Shown here: piece after piece, positions 4,055 through 34,307 of the stretch
Layout of the letters: every line of letters starts with the position of its first letter
Position numbering within the stretch: position 1 is the stretch's first letter
Assembly (NCBI GenBank): GCA_026395675.1
Contig: JAPLYF010000049.1
Coordinates: 1-36,277, forward strand
Direction of reading: 5' to 3'
From: Candidatus Parcubacteria bacterium
Lineage (GTDB): Bacteria; Patescibacteriota; Patescibacteriia; CAIXNZ01
DNA length: 36,277 bases
The notes under the pieces: model-generated
Database searches by the model: none
Seen by the model: the letters and a program-made list of their open reading frames with translations, nothing else
What the model was told of the DNA's origin: nothing
Made by a program: the position numbers and the translations under genes

Positions 4055-5803
4055 ATGACTATCAACGATAAAATCAAACAGGAAATCGTTGGCCTTTTAA
4101 AAAAACAAAAGGTTAAGATTAAAATTGAGGAATTAGAAACACCGCCGTCAGCGGAAATGGGAGATTGGGCTTTGCCTTGTTTTAATTTGGCAAAAGAATT
4201 TAAACGTGCGCCGCAGGATATTGCTAAAGATTTTGCGCAAAATTTAAAACCCAGCGGTTTGATTATAAATTTCAAAAGCATTGGGCCTTATTTAAATTTT
4301 ATGATTGATGCCAGCAAGGTGGCAGAATTGGTTTTGAAAGAAATAAATAAAAGTAAAGGTAAATATGGGCAAAGCAAAATCGGTAAAAAAGAAAAGGTAA
4401 TGATTGAATATTCCCAGCCCAATACGCATAAGGAATTTCATGTCGGTCATTTGCGCAATGTTTGCATTGGCGCGTCTTTGGTTAATCTATACAAAAACTG
4501 CGGTTATAAAGTAATCAGCGCTAATTACCCGGCTGACAGTGGGGCGCATGTAGCCAAGACATTATGGTATTTGCAAAATTATACTAATCAAACAGATATT
4601 CCGTCTTTGCCAGAAGACCGCGGTGAATTTTTGGGCCAGACCTATGCGCGGGCAGTGGCAGAACTAACTGATCACCCAGAATTAAAGCCGCAAGTTCAGG
4701 ACATAATGTTAAAACTAGAAGCCGGGGATAAGGCCTTAATTAAATTATGGCAAGAAACCAGGCAATGGAGCTTGGACCAATTTAAAAAAATATATAAGGA
4801 ACTCGGGGTTGATTTTGATGTCTGGTTTTATGAAAGCGTGGAAGAAAAAGAAGGCAAAAAAATGTTACCTAAACTTTTAAAACATAATTTTATTAAAAAA
4901 AGCGAGGGCGCGATTATCGCTGATTTGGCCAAATATAATTTGGGCATTTTGGTTTTAATTCGTCAGGATGGAACAGCTTTATATGGCATTAAAGATATTG
5001 CTTTGGGAGTAAAAAAGTTTAAAAAATATAAAGTAAAAAAATCTATTTACGTGGTTGATACGCGGCAATCTCAATATTTAAAACAGATATTTAAAATTTT
5101 GGAATTAATGGGCTTTAAAAAAGCCATGATTCATGTGGCTTATGAATTTGTGGAATTAAAATCGGGCATAATATCTTCGCGCACTGGTAATATCGTGACT
5201 TATGAAGAAGTGAGGGATGTGGCTTTAAATAAAGTTTTGGCAGAAACTAAAGAGCGCCATTCTGATTGGAGCGAAAAGAAAATTATTGAAGTAAGTTTGA
5301 AAATTGTTCTGGCGGCATTGAAATTCGGCATGTTAAAAAGCGGCAATGATAAAGTCATAACTTTTGACATTAATGAGTCCCTTGATTTGAATGGCTTTAC
5401 CGGGCCTTATCTGCAATATACTTTGGCGCGTTTGAATTCTATTTTTAGGAAGATCAAAGGAATATCCGCCAGAGGCGCCGTGCCCGCCGGCAGGCAGGGA
5501 TCCGCCTTTGGCGGAAAAATTGATTATAAAAATTTGGCTGCGCTTATTGAAATTAAATTGATTAAAGATCTATTGGCATATCCTGATAAAATTTCAGAAA
5601 GTTTAAAATTAAATGACCCTTCGATTATTGCCCAATATTTATTTAAATTAGCCCAGGACTTTAATGCTTTTTATCATGAACTGCCGGTATTAAAATCAGA
5701 GCTTGATGTGCAGGCAGCACGGTTAGAATTGCTTTGGGCAATCGGACTGGTTTTAGAAAATGGTATGGGATTACTTGGTTTATCAATTTTGGAAGAGATG
5801 TAA
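4055..5803 (+). CDS. argS: Arginine--tRNA ligase
   Basis: HIGH motif HVGHLRN, class I catalytic core, and a C-terminal DALR-type anticodon-binding region (YLQYTLARLNSIFRK ... AARLELL). Length is typical. Confidence 0.93.
   Translation: MTINDKIKQEIVGLLKKQKVKIKIEELETPPSAEMGDWALPCFNLAKEFKRAPQDIAKDFAQNLKPSGLIINFKSIGPYLNFMIDASKVAELVLKEINKSKGKYGQSKIGKKEKVMIEYSQPNTHKEFHVGHLRNVCIGASLVNLYKNCGYKVISANYPADSGAHVAKTLWYLQNYTNQTDIPSLPEDRGEFLGQTYARAVAELTDHPELKPQVQDIMLKLEAGDKALIKLWQETRQWSLDQFKKIYKELGVDFDVWFYESVEEKEGKKMLPKLLKHNFIKKSEGAIIADLAKYNLGILVLIRQDGTALYGIKDIALGVKKFKKYKVKKSIYVVDTRQSQYLKQIFKILELMGFKKAMIHVAYEFVELKSGIISSRTGNIVTYEEVRDVALNKVLAETKERHSDWSEKKIIEVSLKIVLAALKFGMLKSGNDKVITFDINESLDLNGFTGPYLQYTLARLNSIFRKIKGISARGAVPAGRQGSAFGGKIDYKNLAALIEIKLIKDLLAYPDKISESLKLNDPSIIAQYLFKLAQDFNAFYHELPVLKSELDVQAARLELLWAIGLVLENGMGLLGLSILEEM
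5464..5517. repeat. Family 2 palindromic element inserted in frame in argS, in reverse orientation
   Basis: atccgccagaggcg...gatccgcctttggcggaaa is the reverse complement of the intergenic elements at 28218, 28629 and 31986 (tttccgccaaaggc...ggcggatc.gcctctggc.ga). It encodes about ISARGAVPAGRQGSAFGGK. Confidence 0.85.
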
Positions 5804-5826
5804 TTTTTCCATAAATTTAAAGATAA

Positions 5827-5852
5827 AACACGTCGCTCGCGAGCGACGTGTT
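5827..5852. repeat. Perfect 26-nt palindrome aacacgtcgctcgcgagcgacgtgtt; a related copy lies at 17275
   Basis: Read directly. It lies just after the argS stop and may also act as a transcript-end hairpin. Confidence 0.7.
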
Positions 5853-5860
5853 AAAAAAGA

Positions 5861-5890
5861 CCCCCATGATGGATTTTTCATGGGGGTTTT
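5861..5890 (+). terminator. Intrinsic terminator (cccccatga/tcatggggg stem plus T-tract) after argS
   Basis: 9-bp stem followed by TTTT. Confidence 0.7.
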
Positions 5891-6545
5891 GTATTTCATA
5901 AACTAGTCATAGCTTTTCCCTCGGGTGCGGGGATGCTCCATCTGGTGTTTAATCAGGATCAACAGTGAGGAGGGCACCTCCTCTGATTAAGTGTCCAGAT
6001 TTTGCCGTTTTTACCGGCTTAACATTCGTGCCAGGCAGGCAGTGGAGACAAGTTCCTAAGCAATAACGTTAATAATACTTTTTTTAGTAATTTGGTTTCC
6101 CAATTCGGGAAACATTAAGTTTTTAACGTCAGCTGCTTGAGAGACTCGTTTGGGCTATGCGGCAGTTAAGAATGATGGTTTTGAAGAATGAAAAACCACT
6201 CCCCGAAATTTCCTTACCTAGTTTATGTTCACAATAATGCAAAATGGCAGTGCAATTTAAGTTTAAGGAAAAATTTTTAAATTGGCAATAGGTGTTCTGG
6301 TTTTTCCACAGAAAATGATTTAAGGTGTTTAAAATTTTTAACAAAAAGCCGCTCTTTTTGTCATTCCGAACGCAGTGAGGAATCCAGGATTATTCGCCTG
6401 GCCCTGAATGACAGAGGCGGCTTTTTCTTTTCCTGTGCATAAATCATCTAATTCTTATTAACACATTTTACTTAGAAAAATCTCTTGTCAGCAAAAACAG
6501 GCATGTTATTTTTAAGGCAGAAGCTTGAGCCAAAATTAGCTTGGG

Positions 6546-6821
6546 CACCCTCCTTCGTCCCGTTCGGCGGGACTACGGAGGGCTAAGTAAAAAAAATATG
6601 AAAGCCCTCCTTCGCACAAGGCTACGGAGGGCAAAGGGGGAAAATTATGAAAAACAAAAAACAAAACAGTCATCCTTCGCTAAAGCTACGGATGACAAGA
6701 AAGGAGGAAAATTTAGTAGCACACCTAAATAATTTTTGGGTGTTTTTTTGTTCGGCTAAAGCCGAAACATGTACCTTGAAAACATACTAACAGATCCGCC
6801 TTCGTTAAAACTTCGGCGGAT
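6546..6821. repeat. Cluster of five family 1 REP-like hairpins (6546-6583, 6604-6632, 6669-6696, 6794-6821, plus the gttcggctaaagccgaac hairpin at about 6751)
   Basis: Each copy has a 6-7 bp GC-rich stem around a TTCG..AAGCTAC-type loop. Stem sequences differ between copies (ccctcc, gccctcc, gtcatcc, atccgcc). Confidence 0.85.
6721..6749 (+). terminator. Intrinsic terminator (acacctaa/ttgggtgt stem plus TTTTTT) with no annotated gene upstream
   Basis: 8-bp stem, 7-nt loop and a 6-T tract, read directly. Confidence 0.55.
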
Positions 6822-7069
6822 TTAGAAAGGAGAGTTATTGAGGAAAATATTTAAAGCGGCAAAGGCGCGTAACTAGTTAACCCAGAATCTAAAATTTTTT
6901 GCAGGAGGTAATTTATAGCAAAAGCAAAAGAGGTATGCGGTGTAGTTTAAACTCTGCTTGGCGCGACCTTTGGCACGCCAAAAAGAGATAGCTCTGCCTT
7001 AGTCTGGCCAAGTGCTGGACAAGGCAGAGCAAACCTTTTAACTTCTAACAAGACCGACGAGGAGCAAAA

Positions 7070-10192: not shown

Positions 10193-10972
10193 ATGAAAAT
10201 TTTAAAAATTTCAACATTAATTGTTCTTTTTGCGTTAATCTTGGCCGGCTGTAACGTCAAATTAAATCTCAATTCCAATCTTAACCAAAGCCAGATAAAA
10301 ATTGAACCTAATGCGAACACAAATCAGGGGAATTTGAATGCAAATACGAATCAAAACGCCAATGCCAACCAAAATGCTAATGAGAATGCCAATCAGAATA
10401 TCAACGCAGCACCACAAGCAAAGGCAGAATATGAAATTTCAGCTAGTCCAGAAAAACTGGTGACTGAGATAAAAATTGGCGAGGTTACTTTAAAAGATTT
10501 CAAGGAATTGTGCGGCAATGATGTTATGGTTTATGCTGAACCAAAAAATGGTTTTATTATTTTTCAGGCCTTTAATCCTGGTTCTGATAAGCCAGTCTCA
10601 AGTTTATATTCCTTAGATTTAAATTCAAAGGGCTGCAAGAAACTATCAATCTCCAAAGAACTTTCTGATTTTGGCGCTAGAGTTTTATCGCCAGACCAGA
10701 CCAAATTGGCTTTGGCTTTGGAAACAAATGAAGCCCAAGAATTGAAACTTGTGGACTTAATTAAGGATACGTCAAAGGTTTTAGTCACTTTGCCAGAAGG
10801 GGAGACCTTAAATGGCGGTTATGGCGCTTTATCAAATCATTTTGATCTCAAATGGCTGGATGATAAGACGATTCAATATGCGGTTTATGAAGACACGGTT
10901 AAAAATTATGCTGCCAATGCGCCGGAAAATATTGAAAAAGTTTTACAAGTGAGAGTATTAAAAGTTGAATAA
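10193..10972 (+). CDS. Lipoprotein, function unknown, with an Asn/Gln-rich low-complexity linker
   Basis: Lipobox LILAGC after a hydrophobic N-terminus, followed by a NANTNQNANANQNANENANQN tract. Confidence 0.7.
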   Translation: MKILKISTLIVLFALILAGCNVKLNLNSNLNQSQIKIEPNANTNQGNLNANTNQNANANQNANENANQNINAAPQAKAEYEISASPEKLVTEIKIGEVTLKDFKELCGNDVMVYAEPKNGFIIFQAFNPGSDKPVSSLYSLDLNSKGCKKLSISKELSDFGARVLSPDQTKLALALETNEAQELKLVDLIKDTSKVLVTLPEGETLNGGYGALSNHFDLKWLDDKTIQYAVYEDTVKNYAANAPENIEKVLQVRVLKVE

Positions 10973-21194: not shown

Positions 21195-21223
21195 ATCCGC
21201 CTACGCGTAAAGCTTCGGCGGAT
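21195..21223. repeat. Family 1 REP-like hairpin (atccgcc/ggcggat)
   Basis: Read directly, immediately after the kinase stop. Confidence 0.8.
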
Positions 21224-22824: not shown

Positions 22825-23790
22825 ATGCTTAAAATAGGTTTAATTTTTGGCGGGTTAAGCAATGAACATGAAGTTTCTATAAATTCCGCAAAAAATATCG
22901 TTAAAAATTTTGATTACAATAAATATAAATTGGTCTTAATTTATTGGAAAAGAGACGGAAGGTTTTATGTTATAGAAGATATAAATAATCTTAAAAATAA
23001 ACAATTAATCGCCATCGAAGCTTTTAAGCAAAAATTTGATATTTCTTTATTAATGACCCACGGCAAATATGGCGAGGATGGGGTGCTGCAAGCGATTTTG
23101 GAAAGCCAAAAGATTAAATATTGTGGGTGTAAGGTTTTGAGTTCAGCTTTATGCATGGACAAAGCCATATTTAAACAATTTGCAGGCGGGCAAAAATTCC
23201 CGCAGGTAAAATTTGAGATAATCGCAGATAAATTTGCGCCTAATGAGATAAATGCGATAAAAAAAATGTTTAAATTGCCTGTTTTTGTGAAACCAGCCAA
23301 TTCCGGATCTTCAGTCGGCATTACAAAAGTTAAGGATTTTGCAAAACTTAAATTGGCGATTAAAGAAGCTTTTAAGCATGATAGCAAGGTCATTATTGAG
23401 CAAGGGATTGAAAAGCTCCATGAAATTGAAGTAGCGATTTTGGGCAATGAAAAATTAATAATTTCAGAGCCAGGGGAAGTCCTGCCCTTTAAAGAATTTT
23501 ATGATTATGATGACAAATATATTTTGAATAAGACTAAATTAATAATTCCAGCCAAGTTAAATAGGCAGATGATCTTTAAAATTAAAGAAATCGCGGGGAA
23601 AATTTATAAATTATGCGATTGTTCAGGATTTGCTAGGATTGATTTTTTAATTAAAAATAATAAAGTTTATTTAAACGAGATTAACACCTTGCCTGGCTTT
23701 ACTCAAAATTCAATGTACCCGCTTTTAATGATGAATTCGGGCATTAGCTATAAAGAATTGATTAATAAAATAATTGAATTATCTTCTTGA
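22825..23790 (+). CDS. ddl: D-alanine--D-alanine ligase
   Basis: IGLIFGGLSNEHEVSINSA, PVFVKPANSGSSVGI and EINTLPGFTQNSMYP are all classic Ddl motifs. Confidence 0.92.
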   Translation: MLKIGLIFGGLSNEHEVSINSAKNIVKNFDYNKYKLVLIYWKRDGRFYVIEDINNLKNKQLIAIEAFKQKFDISLLMTHGKYGEDGVLQAILESQKIKYCGCKVLSSALCMDKAIFKQFAGGQKFPQVKFEIIADKFAPNEINAIKKMFKLPVFVKPANSGSSVGITKVKDFAKLKLAIKEAFKHDSKVIIEQGIEKLHEIEVAILGNEKLIISEPGEVLPFKEFYDYDDKYILNKTKLIIPAKLNRQMIFKIKEIAGKIYKLCDCSGFARIDFLIKNNKVYLNEINTLPGFTQNSMYPLLMMNSGISYKELINKIIELSS

Positions 23791-23889: not shown

Positions 23890-24030
23890 ATTATCAGCGG
23901 CTTTAGCCGCTGCACAGTTACGAAGTGGCTGATCGTTAATCAGATGAACTTCCCTAATAAAATTCTGCGACTTTGTCGCAGTGCGCTTGCTTCCGCCGTC
24001 GCTTTGCTTTGGCGGACAGGAAAGCAAGCG
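23890..24030. repeat. Left composite repeat (hairpins cagcggc/gccgctg, ctgcgac/gtcgcag, and nested gcttgctt..ccgcc..ggcgg..aagcaagc)
   Basis: Aligns with 24683-24822 in direct orientation. The hairpin modules are near-identical and the AT-rich linker has diverged. Confidence 0.85.
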
Positions 24031-24177
24031 ATAATTGTTTTCGTATATTTTTAAAAAGATATTATCAGAGGCTTTAGCCTCTGCACGGCCACTATGTGGC
24101 CGAAAAAGAATTCATGATTCAGCAGCTTTGCTGCTGTGCGGACGCTAAAGCGTCCGATAATTAATAAAAGAAATTCC

Positions 24178-24675
24178 ATGGAGTTTTATTTGGATAATAA
24201 TTATTTTTTTATTACCTGCCGGACAATTGATGGCAGGGATTATTTTTTAGAAAATGAAATAAGAGGTTATATTTTAGATCTATTTAAAAAAATTGAACAA
24301 AATTTTAGTGTTAAATTTTGTGCTTATAGTATTTTATTGAATCATTACCATTTCTTGTTATATTTACAGAAGGGGAAAGAAATACATGAAATAATTCATA
24401 AAATAAATGGGAATATTTCCTATTATTTAAAAGATGCGCCAAAACCTTTGTGGGATATTTATCATAACAGCAATGCTTTTAACGAAGATTCATTTTATAA
24501 GATAATAGGTTATATCGCAGGCAATCCTTTTAAACATGGATTGGTAAAAGATATTGAGGACTTGAAAAATTATAGATTTAGTAACTATAATGAATTAGCT
24601 GATAAATATGGCTATGATGGTATTAATGAAATTATTAGCAATGTACATCGGTTGAATTGGGAATTAAAATTATAA
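24178..24675 (+). CDS. REP-associated tyrosine transposase (RAYT) / IS200-like Y1 HUH transposase
   Basis: HUH motif in LLNHYHFLL. Catalytic Tyr motif IGYIAGNPFKHGLV. N-terminal YFFITCRT. 165 aa from the ATG at 24178; the listed GTG at 24136 lies in a hairpin repeat. Confidence 0.75.
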   Translation: MEFYLDNNYFFITCRTIDGRDYFLENEIRGYILDLFKKIEQNFSVKFCAYSILLNHYHFLLYLQKGKEIHEIIHKINGNISYYLKDAPKPLWDIYHNSNAFNEDSFYKIIGYIAGNPFKHGLVKDIEDLKNYRFSNYNELADKYGYDGINEIISNVHRLNWELKL

Positions 24676-24682
24676 TGGAGAC

Positions 24683-24822
24683 ATTATCAGCGGCTTTAGC
24701 CGCTGCACAGCCACGCAGTGGCTGATCGTTACACATGTAAACTTTTTAATAATATTCTGCGACTTTGTCGCAGTGCGCTTGCTTCCGCCGTCGCTTTGCT
24801 TTGGCGGACAGGAAAGCAAGCG
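24683..24822. repeat. Right composite repeat, a direct copy of 23890-24030
   Basis: See the left copy. Confidence 0.85.
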
Positions 24823-24882
24823 GTAATTAATTTAGCTTCGGCGGACAGGAAAGCGGCCGATAATATAAATAATTCTAAAAAT

Positions 24883-26051: not shown

Positions 26052-26100
26052 CAAGCAGGTTTCTGCCTACGCTAAAGCTTCGGCCGACAGGCAAATCCTG
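26052..26100. repeat. 49-bp REP-like element flanked by a 10-bp direct repeat (tcctcggcat) that includes the tRNA-Leu 3' end
   Basis: tcctcggcat occurs at 26042-26051 and again at 26101-26110. The core is ctgcctacgctaaagcttcggccgacagg. Confidence 0.7.
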
Positions 26101-26137: not shown

Positions 26138-26430
26138 TGTTATAGTTAAAAGTTATTAGTTATATTGGGCGCTTAGCTCCCCTCGACTTCGCTCGGGGCA
26201 GGCAGTTGTGACTTAAAGTATTTATGGACGGCAACCAGCTTCGCTAAGCGCATCCCAACAGTTATTGTTATAGTTATAAGGTATTAGTTTAATAAGGGCG
26301 CTTAGCTTCTGCCTACGCTAAAGCTACGGCAGACAAGCAGTTATGACTTAAAGTATTTACGGATGGCAACCAGCTTCGCTAAGCGCATACCAACAGTTAT
26401 TGTTATAGTTATAAGGTATTAGTTTAATAA
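26138..26430. repeat. Two tandem units (128 and 135 bp), each carrying the tRNA-Val upstream leader and the first 12 nt of tRNA-Val, followed by a REP hairpin and a conserved 65-nt block
   Basis: tgttatagtt..aataa-gggcgcttagct occurs at 26138/26168, 26266/26296 and 26401/26431. Only the third copy continues into a full tRNA. Confidence 0.85.
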
Positions 26431-26504
26431 GGGCGCTTAGCTCAGCTGGTTAGAGCGACTCGTTTACACCGAGTAGGTCGAGGGTTCGACTCCTTCAGCG
26501 CCCA
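26431..26504 (+). tRNA. tRNA-Val, anticodon UAC
   Basis: Acceptor GGGCGCT/AGCGCCC, D-arm GCTC-AGCTGGTTA-GAGC, anticodon arm ACTCG-TTTACAC-CGAGT, T-arm GAGGG-TTCGACT-CCTTC. Confidence 0.92.
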
Positions 26505-26584: not shown

Positions 26585-26613
26585 GCCCTCCTTCGCATAA
26601 AGCTTCGGAGGGC
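26585..26613. repeat. Family 1 REP-like hairpin (gccctcc/ggagggc) just upstream of the purD RBS
   Basis: Read directly. Confidence 0.8.
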
Positions 26614-26630
26614 AGGGAGGTTAGTTAAAG

Positions 26631-28217: not shown

Positions 28218-28252
28218 TTTCCGCCAAAGGCGGATCAGCCTCTGGCTGAAAA
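28218..28252. repeat. Family 2 element, minimal form: two adjacent hairpins tccgcc-aaa-ggcgga and tcagcc-tct-ggctga
   Basis: Read directly. Confidence 0.85.
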
Positions 28253-28628: not shown

Positions 28629-28684
28629 TTTTCCGCCAAAGGCCTGGCCTTGGCCAAGACAGGCGGATCAGCCTCTGGCTGATA
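28629..28684. repeat. Family 2 element with an extra palindrome (ggcctggccttggccaag) inserted in the first hairpin loop
   Basis: Same termini as 28218-28252, with an expanded interior. Confidence 0.85.
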
Positions 28685-30454: not shown

Positions 30455-31966
30455 ATGGACTTACAATCAATACAACAAGCAGTCAAACAAATCGCCGCTG
30501 AGAAAAATATTTCTGAGCAGGCAATTCTGGAAACCCTAAATTCTGCGCTGGCCGCGGCTTACCGCAAGGACTTTGGCCAGAAAAACCAGAATATTCTCCT
30601 TGAATTTGACGTTAAAAGCGGCCAAATGAAGGTTTTTGATAAAAAAATAGTAGTTGATTTTCCCGCAGAAATCATTAAAGAAATTGATGAGAACGGCCGG
30701 GATAAAAAGTATGTTAAAGAAATTGAAGGAGCGCCTGAGGGTGAAGAGCCAATAAAATTTAATCCTAAAAATGAAATCCTGCTGGAAGATGCTAAGAAAA
30801 TTAATAAAAAAATCAAAGTTGGCGAAGAACTGGTCACGGAATTAGATTTGCCGGCTGACTTTGGCCGCATGGCCGCTCAAACAGCCAAACAGGTAATTAT
30901 TCAGAAAATCCGCGAGGCAGAGAGAGAAACGATCTTTAATGAGTATAAATCTAAAGAAGGCCAGCTGGTAACTGGGGTTATTCAGCGCAGGGAAAATGTC
31001 GGTATTTTAGTTGATTTGGGCAAAGTCACGGCCTTGATGCCGATTGAGGAGCAGATCAGAAATGAGAGATATAATCCTGGCGAGAGAATGAAACTTTATT
31101 TGATCAGGGTAGAGATGTCCCTTAAGGGCCCGGAAATAATTGTTTCTCGTTCGAGTCCGGAAATGATCAAAAAATTATTTGAAACAGAAATTCCTGAAAT
31201 AAATTCCGGAGCTATTGATATTATGGGTATTGCCCGCGAGGCTGGTTGGCGTTCCAAGGTGGCTGTGAAAAGCAATCAGGAAAACATTGATCCGATTGGT
31301 TCTTGCGTTGGCCAGCGCGGCTCGCGCATTCAGACCATTATCAATGAATTGGGCGGTGAAAAAATTGATATTATAGAATGGGACGAAGAACCCAGCAAAT
31401 TTATTGCCAATTCCTTATCGCCGGCTAAGGTTATAAGCATTGACGTTGCGAGTAAAACAAAAATTGCCATGGTCACGGTTAAGGAAGACCAGCTTTCTTT
31501 GGCCATTGGTAAGGAAGGCCAGAATGTGCGTTTGGCCGCAAAATTAACTGGCTGGAAAATTAATATTATAAAAGAAACAGTTGAGGGTAAAAAAGAAAAA
31601 GTTGAATTGGGCAAAGAAGAGGAAAAGGAAAAAGAGCCAGAAACTGCTCCGGAGGTTAAGCCAGAAGAAAAAGAAAAAAAAGTGAAGAAAGAAAAAAAAG
31701 CCTCCTCCGCTGAAGCTACGGAGGCTAAAGAAAAAAAAGAAAAGAAAACTAAAAAGTCAGCAGCCAAGAAAAAAGAGAAGAAAGAACTTTCATCTGCCGA
31801 AGCTTCTGCCTCCGCTTCAGCCGACGCTTCCGCCGCCGCTAAAGCTCTGGCGGACAAGAAAGCTTTGGCTGATAAAAATGCTACGGCAGACAGGTCGGTG
31901 GATAAAAAAGCTTCTGCCTTCGCTGAAGCTACGGCAGACAGGTCAGAGGGTAAAGAAGAGGAATAA
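30455..31966 (+). CDS. nusA: Transcription termination/antitermination factor NusA with an atypical Lys/Glu-rich, REP-derived C-terminal tail
   Basis: S1 domain (QLVTGVIQRRENVGILVDLG) and KH1/KH2 (IDPIGSCVGQRGSRIQ; LAIGKEGQNVRLAAKLTGWKINI). About 128 extra residues follow KH2. Confidence 0.93.
   Translation: MDLQSIQQAVKQIAAEKNISEQAILETLNSALAAAYRKDFGQKNQNILLEFDVKSGQMKVFDKKIVVDFPAEIIKEIDENGRDKKYVKEIEGAPEGEEPIKFNPKNEILLEDAKKINKKIKVGEELVTELDLPADFGRMAAQTAKQVIIQKIREAERETIFNEYKSKEGQLVTGVIQRRENVGILVDLGKVTALMPIEEQIRNERYNPGERMKLYLIRVEMSLKGPEIIVSRSSPEMIKKLFETEIPEINSGAIDIMGIAREAGWRSKVAVKSNQENIDPIGSCVGQRGSRIQTIINELGGEKIDIIEWDEEPSKFIANSLSPAKVISIDVASKTKIAMVTVKEDQLSLAIGKEGQNVRLAAKLTGWKINIIKETVEGKKEKVELGKEEEKEKEPETAPEVKPEEKEKKVKKEKKASSAEATEAKEKKEKKTKKSAAKKKEKKELSSAEASASASADASAAAKALADKKALADKNATADRSVDKKASAFAEATADRSEGKEEE
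31700..31940. repeat. Family 1 REP-like hairpins inside the nusA tail (31700-31725, outer 31793-31890 with a nested inner copy at 31829-31854, and 31913-31938)
   Basis: Palindromes gcctcc/ggaggc, tctgcc/ggcaga and tccgcc/ggcgga, translated as SSAEATEAK, AAKALADK, NATADRS and SAFAEATADRS. Confidence 0.8.
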
Positions 31967-31985: not shown

Positions 31986-32060
31986 TTTCCGCCAAAGGCC
32001 TGGGCCTTGGCTCGCATAGGCGAAGCCTTGCCAAGACAGGCGGATCCGCCTCTGGCGGAC
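31986..32060. repeat. Family 2 element, most expanded form, between nusA and yidC
   Basis: tttccgccaaaggcc...ggcggatccgcctctggcggac, with additional internal palindromes. Confidence 0.85.
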
Positions 32061-32072
32061 ATAATTCATCAA

Positions 32073-32858
32073 ATGTCATATTTAATTTACGTTTATAACT
32101 TAATTATTTATCAGCCGCTTTTTAATTTTTTAGTTTGGCTTTATAATGTAATTCCCGGTCATGACATTGGTCTTTCCATTATTATTTTGACTTTGGCAGT
32201 GCGGCTGATACTTTTCCCGCTTTATTACCAGTCCATCAAATCACAAAAGGCCTTGCAGGATATTCAGCCAAAAGTTGAGGAGTTAAAGAAAAAACTAAAA
32301 GATGAAAAGGAAAAATTAGCTCAGGAATTGATGAATTTATACAAGAAAGATAAGGTGAATCCTTTTTCTTCTTGTCTGCCACTCTTAATCCAATTTCCTT
32401 TTCTGATCGCGGTTTATCAGGTTTTCAGACACGGTTTGCAATCGCAGGGCTTTGAAATTCTTTATCCTTTTGTGGCTAACCCCGGCCTGATTAATCCTAT
32501 TTCTTTTGGCATTATTAACCTGGCCAAGCCAAGCTATGTCTTGGCGATCTTGGCTGGCTTAGCCCAGTTTTGGCAGACAAAAATGTTGATGGCTAAAAAG
32601 CCGCCAGTTATTGATCATAAGGAAATCAAGGGTGCTGGAGATGAAAAAGCCTTGGCTGCTATGAATAAGCAGATGGTTTATTTTATGCCAATTTTTACAG
32701 TCATCATAGGCGTGAGTTTGCCAGCCGGATTAAGCCTTTATTGGTTTTTAACGACTTTACTCATGGCCGTGCAGCAGGTGTGGATGTTTAACCATCCTTC
32801 GCATAAAGCTACGGATGGTAAGGAGGGTGAGAAGGGCGAAAGTTCAAATAAGGGGTAA
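32073..32858 (+). CDS. yidC: Membrane protein insertase YidC (short, Oxa1-like form)
   Basis: QKALQDIQPKVEELKKK...ELMNLYKKDKVNPFSSCLPLLIQFPFLIAVYQVF is classic YidC. Start trimmed to the ATG at 32073, because the listed TTG at 32007 lies inside the family 2 repeat. Confidence 0.88.
   Translation: MSYLIYVYNLIIYQPLFNFLVWLYNVIPGHDIGLSIIILTLAVRLILFPLYYQSIKSQKALQDIQPKVEELKKKLKDEKEKLAQELMNLYKKDKVNPFSSCLPLLIQFPFLIAVYQVFRHGLQSQGFEILYPFVANPGLINPISFGIINLAKPSYVLAILAGLAQFWQTKMLMAKKPPVIDHKEIKGAGDEKALAAMNKQMVYFMPIFTVIIGVSLPAGLSLYWFLTTLLMAVQQVWMFNHPSHKATDGKEGEKGESSNKG
32791..32819. repeat. Family 1 REP-like hairpin in frame in the yidC C-terminal tail (accatcc/ggatggt)
   Basis: Translated as NHPSHKATDGK. 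Confidence 0.8.
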
Positions 32859-33275: not shown

Positions 33276-34307
33276 ATGTTTAATCTAAATTATTTAGAAC
33301 TCTTTATTTTAAATACCATAATTTACTTTGATCTTTTTGATTATCCTTTGACTTTGGGTGAAATACACAATTTTCTTTTTACAGGCGGTATGGAAGGTGC
33401 CAGTTTTTCTTTGGCTGAAATCACTGAATGTTTGCAAACGAGTTTAAAATTAAAAAAAGCCATAGCCACACAGCGTGGCTTTTATTTTTTAAAGAATCCG
33501 CCTTCGCGCCTGCCTACGTTAAAACTTCGGCAGGCAGGCAATGCTACGGCGGACGAGGGTAGGGAAAATAATATTCAGACGCGGCTGGAGCGCTATGTCT
33601 TGGCTCAAGATAAATTTAAAATTATTAACCGGGCCATAAAAATTTTTAAATATTTGCCTTTTGTAAAATTAGTTGCTATTTGCAATAATCTGGCTCTGAG
33701 CAATGCCAAAAAAGAAAGCGATCTTGATTTATTTATAATCACCAGTCAAAAGAGGATTTGGGTGGTGCGTTTTTTTACTATTTTAATAATTACGATTTTG
33801 GGTTTGCGACCGCCCAAAAATAAAGTTAAAGATAAAATTTGCCTGAGTTTTTTTATAGCAGAGGATAATTTGGATTTAGCCAAAATAAAAATTACGGCTG
33901 AAGATGTTTATCTGGTTTTTTGGCTGGCAACCTTAAGGCCTGTTTATGAAAGACAGAATTTTTATGCCCAATTAATAGCAGCTAATTTATGGCTAAAAAA
34001 ATATTTGCCTAATTGGCAGGAGCAAAAATTAGGGTTTCGTTATAGGATTGAGGATAATAAGTTAAATAAAATTATTTATAAAACCAAGGAATTTTTTTGG
34101 GGTGGATTTTTGGGCGATTGGGCTGAAAAAATTTTTAAAAATATTCAGTTTAAATTAATGTCCCAAAAGAAAAAGGATCTGGCGGTTCAGCCAGATACAG
34201 GCGTGATTATTTCTGACAGCATGTTAAAATTCCATCTCCAAGATAGGCGCCTGGAAATAATGGCAGAATTTGAAAAGAGAAGAAAGGAACTGGTTGAGAA
34301 AATGTAA
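33276..34307 (+). CDS. Hypothetical protein with a polymerase-beta-like nucleotidyltransferase motif
   Basis: VAICNNLALSNAKKESDLDLFII resembles the G[SN]x(n)SD[LI]D[LI] NTase signature. Contains an in-frame nested REP. Confidence 0.5.
   Translation: MFNLNYLELFILNTIIYFDLFDYPLTLGEIHNFLFTGGMEGASFSLAEITECLQTSLKLKKAIATQRGFYFLKNPPSRLPTLKLRQAGNATADEGRENNIQTRLERYVLAQDKFKIINRAIKIFKYLPFVKLVAICNNLALSNAKKESDLDLFIITSQKRIWVVRFFTILIITILGLRPPKNKVKDKICLSFFIAEDNLDLAKIKITAEDVYLVFWLATLRPVYERQNFYAQLIAANLWLKKYLPNWQEQKLGFRYRIEDNKLNKIIYKTKEFFWGGFLGDWAEKIFKNIQFKLMSQKKKDLAVQPDTGVIISDSMLKFHLQDRRLEIMAEFEKRRKELVEKM
33497..33553. repeat. REP nested within a REP, in frame in the CDS (outer tccgcc/ggcgga, inner cctgcc/ggcagg)
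   Basis: Read directly. Translated as PPSRLPTLKLRQAGNATAD. Confidence 0.8.

Follow-up and report, generated by a model that had tools for sequence, protein, structure and literature searches.

A probable REPtron in a Candidatus Parcubacteria bacterium: a RAYT-like transposase gene amid candidate cognate hairpins

What kind of system is formed by a transposase gene set among arrays of GC-rich hairpins in a small-genome bacterium of the candidate phyla radiation (CPR; Patescibacteria)? Repetitive extragenic palindromic (REP) sequences and the REP-associated tyrosine transposases (RAYTs) are known chiefly from Proteobacteria, and the mechanism by which REPs spread is still unresolved. The locus studied here lies on contig JAPLYF010000049.1 of Candidatus Parcubacteria bacterium (assembly GCA_026395675.1). 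The whole stretch analyzed, 36,277 nt, is referred to as the window, and the related loci or contigs compared with it carry L numbers (L001, L074, etc.). Most probably the locus is a REPtron, that is, a single-copy, vertically inherited RAYT (a Y1/HUH transposase of the TnpA-REP type) amid its cognate REP hairpins. The best explanation for its features is a CPR-specific RAYT clade with short, group-3-like REPs that have a TTTA loop and a variant foot, where the likeness to group 3 is one of REP design. The type of system is already known; its host, a CPR bacterium, is new for it, and a literature search found no paper connecting RAYT/REP systems with CPR bacteria.

The transposase and its flanking arrays

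The gene runs on the plus strand from the ATG at 24178 to the stop at 24675 and encodes 165 amino acids. The initial annotation had read in this open reading frame (ORF) the hallmarks of both RAYT and IS200-like transposases, based on an HUH motif and a catalytic tyrosine. Both motifs are present, with NHYH at residues 55 to 58 (HUH at 56 to 58) and YIAGNPFKHGLV at residues 112 to 123, the catalytic tyrosine being Tyr112. The expected Y1/RAYT similarity was also found in profile searches, where Pfam Y1_Tnp scored 33.2 bits (cut-off, 23) and NCBIfam REP_Tyr_transpos (NF047646) scored 63.9 bits (E value, 1.5e-17), a value below its curated cut-off of 80. The IS200-like part of the claim did not survive, with only 20.6 bits for the NCBIfam IS200 model against a cut-off of 55. 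Along similar lines, the RAYT model matched all 17 family members (best E value, 1e-24), while the IS200 model matched 5 of the 17. Throughout these 17 sequences His56, His58, and Tyr112 were invariant, the catalytic residues remaining constant across 41 to 95% identity.

A sequence search of the PDB gave a single meaningful match, 4ER8 (Escherichia coli TnpA-REP in a RAYT-REP complex), at ca. 19% identity. The alignment spans the HUH motif, and the Y-x3-NP-x-KHG of the clade, in which the tyrosine motif is YxxxNP, pairs with YIyiNPvKHG of the E. coli protein. An AlphaFold2 (AF2) model built from the 17-sequence alignment (pLDDT, 90) pointed the same way. Its top PDB match in Foldseek was 4ER8 (E value, 4.7e-8; TM score, 0.69; 150 columns), followed by the TnpA proteins of IS608 and ISDra2 (E values of ca. 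1e-4; TM scores of 0.45 to 0.52; 103 to 114 columns), and the predicted fold resembles TnpA-REP including the C-terminal helices. Given the Pfam and NCBIfam scores, the proximity of the predicted fold to 4ER8, and the single copy per genome in relatives (see below), the protein is RAYT-like and not IS200-like. By the NCBI threshold, the clade is a divergent relative and not an equivalog. It is also small, since its profile found 31 representatives at an E value of <1e-30, 738 at <1e-10, and 11,353 at <1e-3; exact-sequence look-ups of the 165-amino-acid product and of a 179-amino-acid product gave no match.

Upstream of the gene are the composites E1 (23890 to 24035) and E2 (24061 to 24161), and downstream of it is E3 (24683 to 24827). 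E1 consists of the foot ATTATC, hairpin H1 (23895 to 23912; loop TTTA), a degenerate H2, an AT-rich linker, H3 (23965 to 23981), H4 (23984 to 24030; loop TAAA, split by an insert), and the foot GATAAT. The insert is a nested 29-nt hairpin, TCCGCCGTCGCTTTGCTTTGGCGGACAGG, located on the plus strand at 23992 to 24020 in the loop of H4, at CT^AAAG. E3 is a direct repeat of E1 (H1, 24688 to 24705; H2, 24708 to 24724; H3, 24757 to 24773; H4, 24776 to 24822), with the identical 29-nt hairpin in the loop of its H4 (24784 to 24812, plus strand). The two are on the same strand and 91% identical over 147 aligned bases; H1, H3, H4, and the insert are identical, and the differences lie in H2, which has degenerated in E1, and in the diverged AT-rich linker. 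Thus, the pair of composite direct repeats with near-identical hairpins described in the initial annotation was recovered, as were the further hairpins that it had placed between the left repeat and the gene and after the right repeat. The former correspond to E2, a clean four-hairpin pseudo-palindrome without an insert (H1, 24066 to 24083; H2, 24086 to 24102; H3, 24120 to 24136; H4, 24139 to 24156), and the latter to a minus-strand REP unit (24832 to 24864) that is truncated, holds a nested insert, and reads ATTATC-GGCCGC-TTT-CCTGTCCGCCGAAGC....

Each array opens with ATTATC and closes with GATAAT or GGTAAT. In the REP unit, the 5′ foot TTAYC abuts a GC-rich stem of 7 perfect base pairs, and a C:G pair closes the TTTA loop. 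The four-hairpin form follows the order foot-H1(loop TTTA)-CAC-H2-linker-H3-GTG-H4(loop TAAA)-foot′. In each array, foot-plus-hairpin modules form an inverted doublet, resembling a REP doublet forming hairpins (REPIN) or a bacterial interspersed mosaic element (BIME). Since the arrays are internally inverted, two direct arrays still bracket the gene with inverted REP units, which is the layout of a REPtron, and the units adjacent to the gene face opposite ways, with H4 of E2 on the minus and H1 of E3 on the plus strand. The earlier description of the flanks as direct and not inverted therefore holds for the arrays, which are on the same strand, but not for their REP units, which are inverted around the gene (ATTATC...GATAAT/GGTAAT ends). 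Inverted REP pairs flank the gene in the window (TTAYC...GRTAA) and likewise in 14 lineages.

Folding of the single-stranded DNA gave four hairpins each in E1, E2, and E3 (z-scores of −5.8 to −7.5 versus dinucleotide shuffles). In a MAFFT alignment of nine composites (from the window, L001, L031, L010, and L011), RNAalifold recovered the four hairpins together with the pairing of the terminal feet, with compensatory changes (both sides changed, pair kept) in 15 of 33 pairs. This analysis was used instead of a covariation count on 59 collected units, which was dropped because the units had been chosen for perfect stems and the count was therefore circular. We also considered the L001 composite as a plain inverse of that in the window, in which case the nested inserts of both would occupy one and the same hairpin, and rejected this, as H2 and H3 retain their order and sequence. 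A promoter scan at the locus gave nothing above chance. At the distant homolog L008, the RAYT gene ends at 10507, and the first downstream REP unit (10497 to 10516) overlaps its stop codon.

Association of gene and hairpins across lineages

Across 14 lineages (28 to 77% protein identity; 233 kb), we counted hairpins whose stem was perfect over 5 bp or more and whose loop was C-TTTA-G or C-TAAA-G. Within 350 bp of the gene (9.4 kb in total) there were 57, and in the other 223 kb there were 2 (binomial P value, 7e-77), while shuffles yielded ca. 0.05 such hairpins per locus. The window itself has five, compared to 0.14 expected from shuffles, and four of the five are at the RAYT locus. RAYT-type units are confined to that locus within the 36-kb window, with one footless hairpin elsewhere, at 6751. 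The stems vary by lineage (CAGCGGC, CAGAACC, CCGAC, CGAACAC, and others) and are perfect over 5 to 9 bp, and the TTTA loop is constant throughout, so that the units have the short perfect palindromic stem and specific loop of the group 3 REP type. The feet are also lineage specific, being TTAYC in the window clade, TTATRCC in L002 and L034, TTTTACC in L038, and GTAGCC in L041 and L042, where the unit reads GTAGCC-CAGAC-TTTA-GTCTG. At the level of sequence, this distribution supports the suggestion of the initial annotation that the hairpins are probably the REP-like sequences cognate to the RAYT.

One RAYT locus per genome was found in all 10 genomes with full-length homologs (9 of them CPR-like), and the window has one copy; an ordinary insertion sequence with many gene copies, the possibility entertained beforehand, is not what these genomes contain. 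The named genomes with homologs belong to Candidatus Uhrbacteria, Falkowbacteria, Parcubacteria, Berkelbacteria, “Patescibacteria group,” and one Zixibacteria. Several homologs were placed within contigs of 74 to 165 kb, and a plasmid search for the RAYT gave no match. The window, L001 (77% identity), L010 (70%), and L005 (65%) have a common neighborhood, with a seven-transmembrane (7TM) histidine kinase (HisKA_7TM) upstream and Fer4-methyltransferase-UPF0102-NusA-YidC downstream of the RAYT. By the criteria of PMC5581495, the single locus, the lack of plasmid copies, and the conserved neighborhood fit a housekeeping-like RAYT and not an insertion sequence. Among L034, L036 (equal to L002), and L039 are two low-GC metagenome-assembled genomes (MAGs) with CPR-type RAYTs and hairpins that are labeled “uncultured Gammaproteobacteria,” which is probably a mislabel. 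One homolog with matching hairpins is in a Zixibacteria MAG with a GC content of 0.50, which may point to horizontal transfer or to an error in binning.

The arrays themselves show signs of turnover. A same-strand repeat is common to the two flanks of the gene in each genome, from 20 to 30 bp in the least alike to 147 bp in the window (90 to 100% identity), while flanks of lineages more than 20% apart in protein have at most ca. 43 bp in common. Left and right flanks of one genome thus resemble each other more closely in this repeat than they resemble flanks from other lineages. Differences were also found between close strains. The RAYT DNA of L001 and L031 is 99% identical, yet the content of their arrays and what comes after them differ. 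L073 and L074 encode one and the same protein, 95% identical to that of the window, and their E1 and E3 variants look swapped relative to the window. The gene ddl is upstream of the RAYT in the window (22825 to 23790) and downstream in L001 (5070 to 6059), while L031, whose RAYT is 99% identical to that of L001, has no ddl there. These gene-order breakpoints (ddl; window, L001, L031, and L019) coincide with hairpin arrays, and therefore the arrays may contribute to genome rearrangement.

A metagenome scan with the query TTAYCAGNGGCTTTAGCCNCTG found units adjoining RAYT genes in L014 (equal to L010) and L031; high-GC matches, probably unrelated, were left out (L015 to L018, L020, L021, L023, L025, L026, and L028). 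In L012/L030, L013, L019, L024, L027, and L032, the scan also found two-hairpin doublets (ATTATC-hairpin-CA/TG-hairpin-GGTAAT), and the DNA examined there contains no RAYT. These dispersed doublets lie in related low-GC contigs, with four on one 21-kb contig (L012/L030) and two sites on one 332-kb contig (L024 and L027). The four on the 21-kb contig (L012, 10128 to 10180 and 10505 to 10557; L030, 7910 to 7962 and 8134 to 8186) are identical, carry the exact H1 sequence of the window, and sit in longer repeats rich in G and C runs, with spacings of ca. 224 and 377 bp. L019, with 86% identity to the histidine kinase gene of the window, carries a single doublet, flanked by the kinase gene on one side and a convergent 187-amino-acid gene (CYTH-like by position relative to L001 only) on the other, and this doublet contains the complete form of the unit truncated at 24832 to 24864. 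Doublets occasionally disperse, and the arrays are unstable; the RAYT itself may be the cause.

By homology with the TnpA-REP proteins of E. coli, Stenotrophomonas, and Marinomonas, the RAYT protein would bind the folded single-stranded hairpin in a strand-specific manner, via foot and loop. It would cleave near the hairpin using Tyr112 and a metal bound by the HUH motif, and could rejoin the strands. As a result, REP doublets would be copied and reshuffled, chiefly near the gene and now and then elsewhere.

Several points weigh against a REPtron. The hallmark of classical REP systems is a flanking repeat that is abundant genome-wide (high flanking 16-mer frequency) (PMC5581495), and in relatives the density of units away from the gene is ca. 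0.01 per kb; dispersed doublets are present in six or more related contigs. The canonical 5′ GT[AG]G foot is missing from the window clade; REP classes without GT[AG]G exist (PMC6006769). To these are added the RAYT model score below its curated threshold and the similarity of left and right flanks, which could stem from ordinary homologous gene conversion without RAYT activity.

This last point bears on an alternative in which the RAYT is fully domesticated and immobile, the hairpins are binding or autoregulatory sites or structures for local transcription, and turnover is due to plain homologous recombination or to replication slippage at palindromes. Gene conversion would be expected to produce both the flank similarity and the chimeric arrays between strains, quasi-palindrome correction fits perfect stems with copy-specific sequences, and the near restriction of the units to the gene flanks (57 near versus 2 far) is in agreement. 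We nevertheless consider complete immobility improbable, given the doublets with identical stems at other loci (the two sites on the 332-kb contig and the solo doublet of L019), the catalytic residues kept invariant despite the divergence of the proteins, and the fact that characterized relatives cleave and rejoin REPs (PMC8266576).

An autonomous element of the IS200/IS605 type is very unlikely. It would have E1 and E2 as its left end and E3 as its right end, with same-strand hairpins as in IS608, and would transpose as a unit of ca. 975 bp. The profile scores and the predicted fold, C-terminal helices included, point to TnpA-REP instead, even if Y1_Tnp is a Pfam family common to both. The hairpin-bearing flanks are indeed direct repeats, but they are made up of symmetric inverted doublets and not of asymmetric left and right ends, and gene-free doublets of the same kind occur. 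The gene switches sides relative to ddl between the window and L001, and its neighbors differ in remoter lineages, as a mobile element would have it, but the wider neighborhood is conserved. Several homologs are on very short contigs ending within arrays, while others are mid-contig in long contigs, and relatives have one locus per genome, on one to three contigs per cluster, without tnpB and without a plasmid copy. Finally, the view of the hairpins as ordinary intrinsic terminators or mRNA stabilizers unrelated to the transposase, to which the terminator-like pattern of H3 on the minus strand lends itself, is strongly disfavored by the 57 near versus 2 far count and scarcely credible, as the loop motif accompanies the gene throughout 14 lineages, occurring on either side of it and in either orientation, T-runs are missing from most hairpins, and conserved feet and inverted doublets are not terminator features.

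A second hairpin family and nested loop inserts

The initial annotation had proposed the RAYT as the likely driver of palindromes found throughout the window. This could not be established, because the dispersed palindromes differ from the RAYT-type REPs in foot or tail, have a 14-nt loop, and occur on a single strand, and RAYT-type units are present at their own locus only. The window-wide palindromes are a distinct family, and the accompanying caution that a single RAYT may fail to account for every family was well placed. There is nonetheless a real tie between the two families, which have a common core, GCTTTAGC, and members of the dispersed type are inserted in RAYT-type loops.

In the dispersed family, the GC stem of 6 to 7 bp varies, while the 14-nt loop, TWCG-CTAAAG-CTWC, is conserved; the tail at the 3′ side is ACAGG, ACAAG, or CAGGG. 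In the window, its gapless core occurs 7 times versus 0.04 expected, and at least 11 copies are present when 1-nt indels are allowed, all on the plus strand (6548 to 6821, 21195 to 21223, 26058 to 26092, 26308 to 26337, 26585 to 26617, 31699 to 31940, 32792 to 32818, and 33497 to 33553). The exact core was found in none of the 72 related loci examined, which have diverged copies only. Some copies are in frame within genes, namely, in the NusA tail (31699 to 31940), the YidC C terminus (32792 to 32818), the ORF at 33276 to 34307 (copy at 33497 to 33553), and the ORF at 4055 to 5803 (copy at 5465 to 5515). They translate to stretches rich in Ala, Ser, Glu, and Lys, as in the NusA tail (...ASSAEATEA...ADASAAAKALADKKALAD...ASAFAEATADR), and recall Rickettsia palindromic elements.

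The inserts in the loops of RAYT-type hairpins are 29- to 31-nt members of this family, always located between the T and the A of CT^AAAG and in one relative orientation. Their form is TCCGCC-loop-GGCGGA-CAGG. Besides H4 of E1 and E3 in the window, nested inserts were found in H1 of two L001 composites, in L013, in L019, and in L038, where the unit is 70 bp upstream of a RAYT whose protein is 34% identical. Another is probable in L032, the contig of which ends inside the insert. The same insertion point, CT^AAAG, is used in the loops of the dispersed family itself (window, 31817 to 31872; L006). Deleting the insert from H4 restores the canonical loop, CGCTTGC-TAAA-GCAAGCG, and two pairs of close strains have an empty and a filled site (L031 versus L001, and E3 of L074 versus E3 of the window). 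Loop cleavage between C and T, the C|T site of E. coli, was considered and rejected. The junctions fit only a T/A insertion at CT^AAAG and so do not directly match the cleavage site that has been published. Furthermore, the tail of the dispersed family is constant across CPR lineages with differing RAYT feet, which argues against recognition via the foot.

A tentative possibility, which we regard as rather doubtful, is that the 29- to 31-nt hairpin is an ultra-small mobile DNA that integrates into single-stranded hairpin loops at CT^AAAG with the RAYT as its enzyme. Its targets would include the TTTA/TAAA loops that the RAYT would recognize and the loops of its own family. REPs inside palindromes and inside genes have precedents (PMC3733652), and the nested inserts are therefore unusual but not unheard of. 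Like the Rickettsia palindromic elements and the REPs in genes or palindromes (PMC3733652), the dispersed family is found in frame in genes and nested in palindromes; unlike them, it measures 29 to 31 nt, is restricted to one strand, and has an insertion point fixed at CT^AAAG, including in the REP loops of the RAYT.

Other repeats of the window touch on this family. A 109-nt direct repeat (26199 to 26307 and 26334 to 26442; 95% identical; spacing of 135 nt) precedes tRNA-Val (26431 to 26504). The opening 12 nt of the tRNA (GGGCGCTTAGCT) begin each copy, and after GCT comes an insert of the hairpin family. A matching arrangement is present in L005 (83% identity over 26290 to 26504), and Tandem Repeats Finder (TRF) detected no array near tRNA-Val. 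Two small hairpins, TCCGCCAAAGGCGGA and TCAGCCTCTGGCTGA, recur as a pair at 28220 to 28249, 28632 to 28682, and 31988 to 32059, and in two copies the first hairpin holds one or two more nested hairpins ending in ACAGG. The region from 5804 to 7069 (1.27 kb) has no ORF of at least 90 amino acids and no Rfam match at the gathering score and is dense in hairpins and terminator-like structures; it could hold an unrecognized RNA gene. The Rfam scan of the window at gathering thresholds found one tRNA only.

Known systems and significance of the locus

The closest design is REPtron Mb of Marinomonas sp. MWYL1, a group 3 TnpA-REP system (PMC8266576). In REP-Mb, a GTAG foot is separated by 2 nt from a stem of 5 bp with a TTTA loop, of which the bases T12, T13, and A15 are essential for cleavage (PMC8266576). 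The TTTA loop, the short perfect palindromes, the concentration of REPs beside tnpA, and the single-copy gene are common to Mb and the locus described here. The distant CPR loci L041 and L042 have exactly this design, GTAG foot and spacing included, whereas the window clade departs from it in having a TTAYC foot abutting a 7-bp stem, four-hairpin composites, and a small-genome CPR host.

The REPtron of E. coli (TnpA-REP/YafM, 4ER8; PMC3333891 and PMC3479197), with HUH and Y-x3-NP-x-KHG in common, gave the best structural and PDB sequence match. The REPtron concept was described together with its three inverted REP pairs around tnpA (PMC6006769), and the gene studied here is similarly flanked by several inverted pairs. 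In contrast, E. coli REPs are long, bulged, and GTAG footed, with hundreds of dispersed copies, while the stems here are short and perfect and far copies are few. The REPIN-RAYT systems of Pseudomonas (PMC3116915 and PMC5581495) have in common with the locus the inverted-doublet unit and a single-copy, vertically inherited RAYT flanked by REPINs, but no large REPIN population emerged from the DNA examined, and the stems here differ from copy to copy and do not form one master sequence with a cloud of mutants. Elements of IS200/IS605 (IS608 and ISDra2) also have the Y1/HUH fold, same-strand hairpins at both ends, and recognition of single-stranded DNA hairpins (here predicted). Relative to these elements, the locus has much weaker profile and fold matches, a single-locus gene, ends that are symmetric doublets, and YxxxNP in place of YxxxQ.

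This locus extends RAYT/REP systems to the small-genome CPR bacteria. It represents a stripped-down case in which almost every cognate hairpin is beside the gene and the loop has been kept over deep divergence while the stems covary. The part most deserving follow-up is the loop-targeted insertion of mini-hairpins, for which the natural empty and filled sites provide the exact junctions of the second hairpin in a REP loop, concrete and testable substrates for cleavage and strand-transfer assays. If the proposal of a mobile mini-hairpin were true, it would make “Russian-doll” palindromes and would seed a one-strand-only family that pervades the genome, including the in-frame copies in NusA and YidC.

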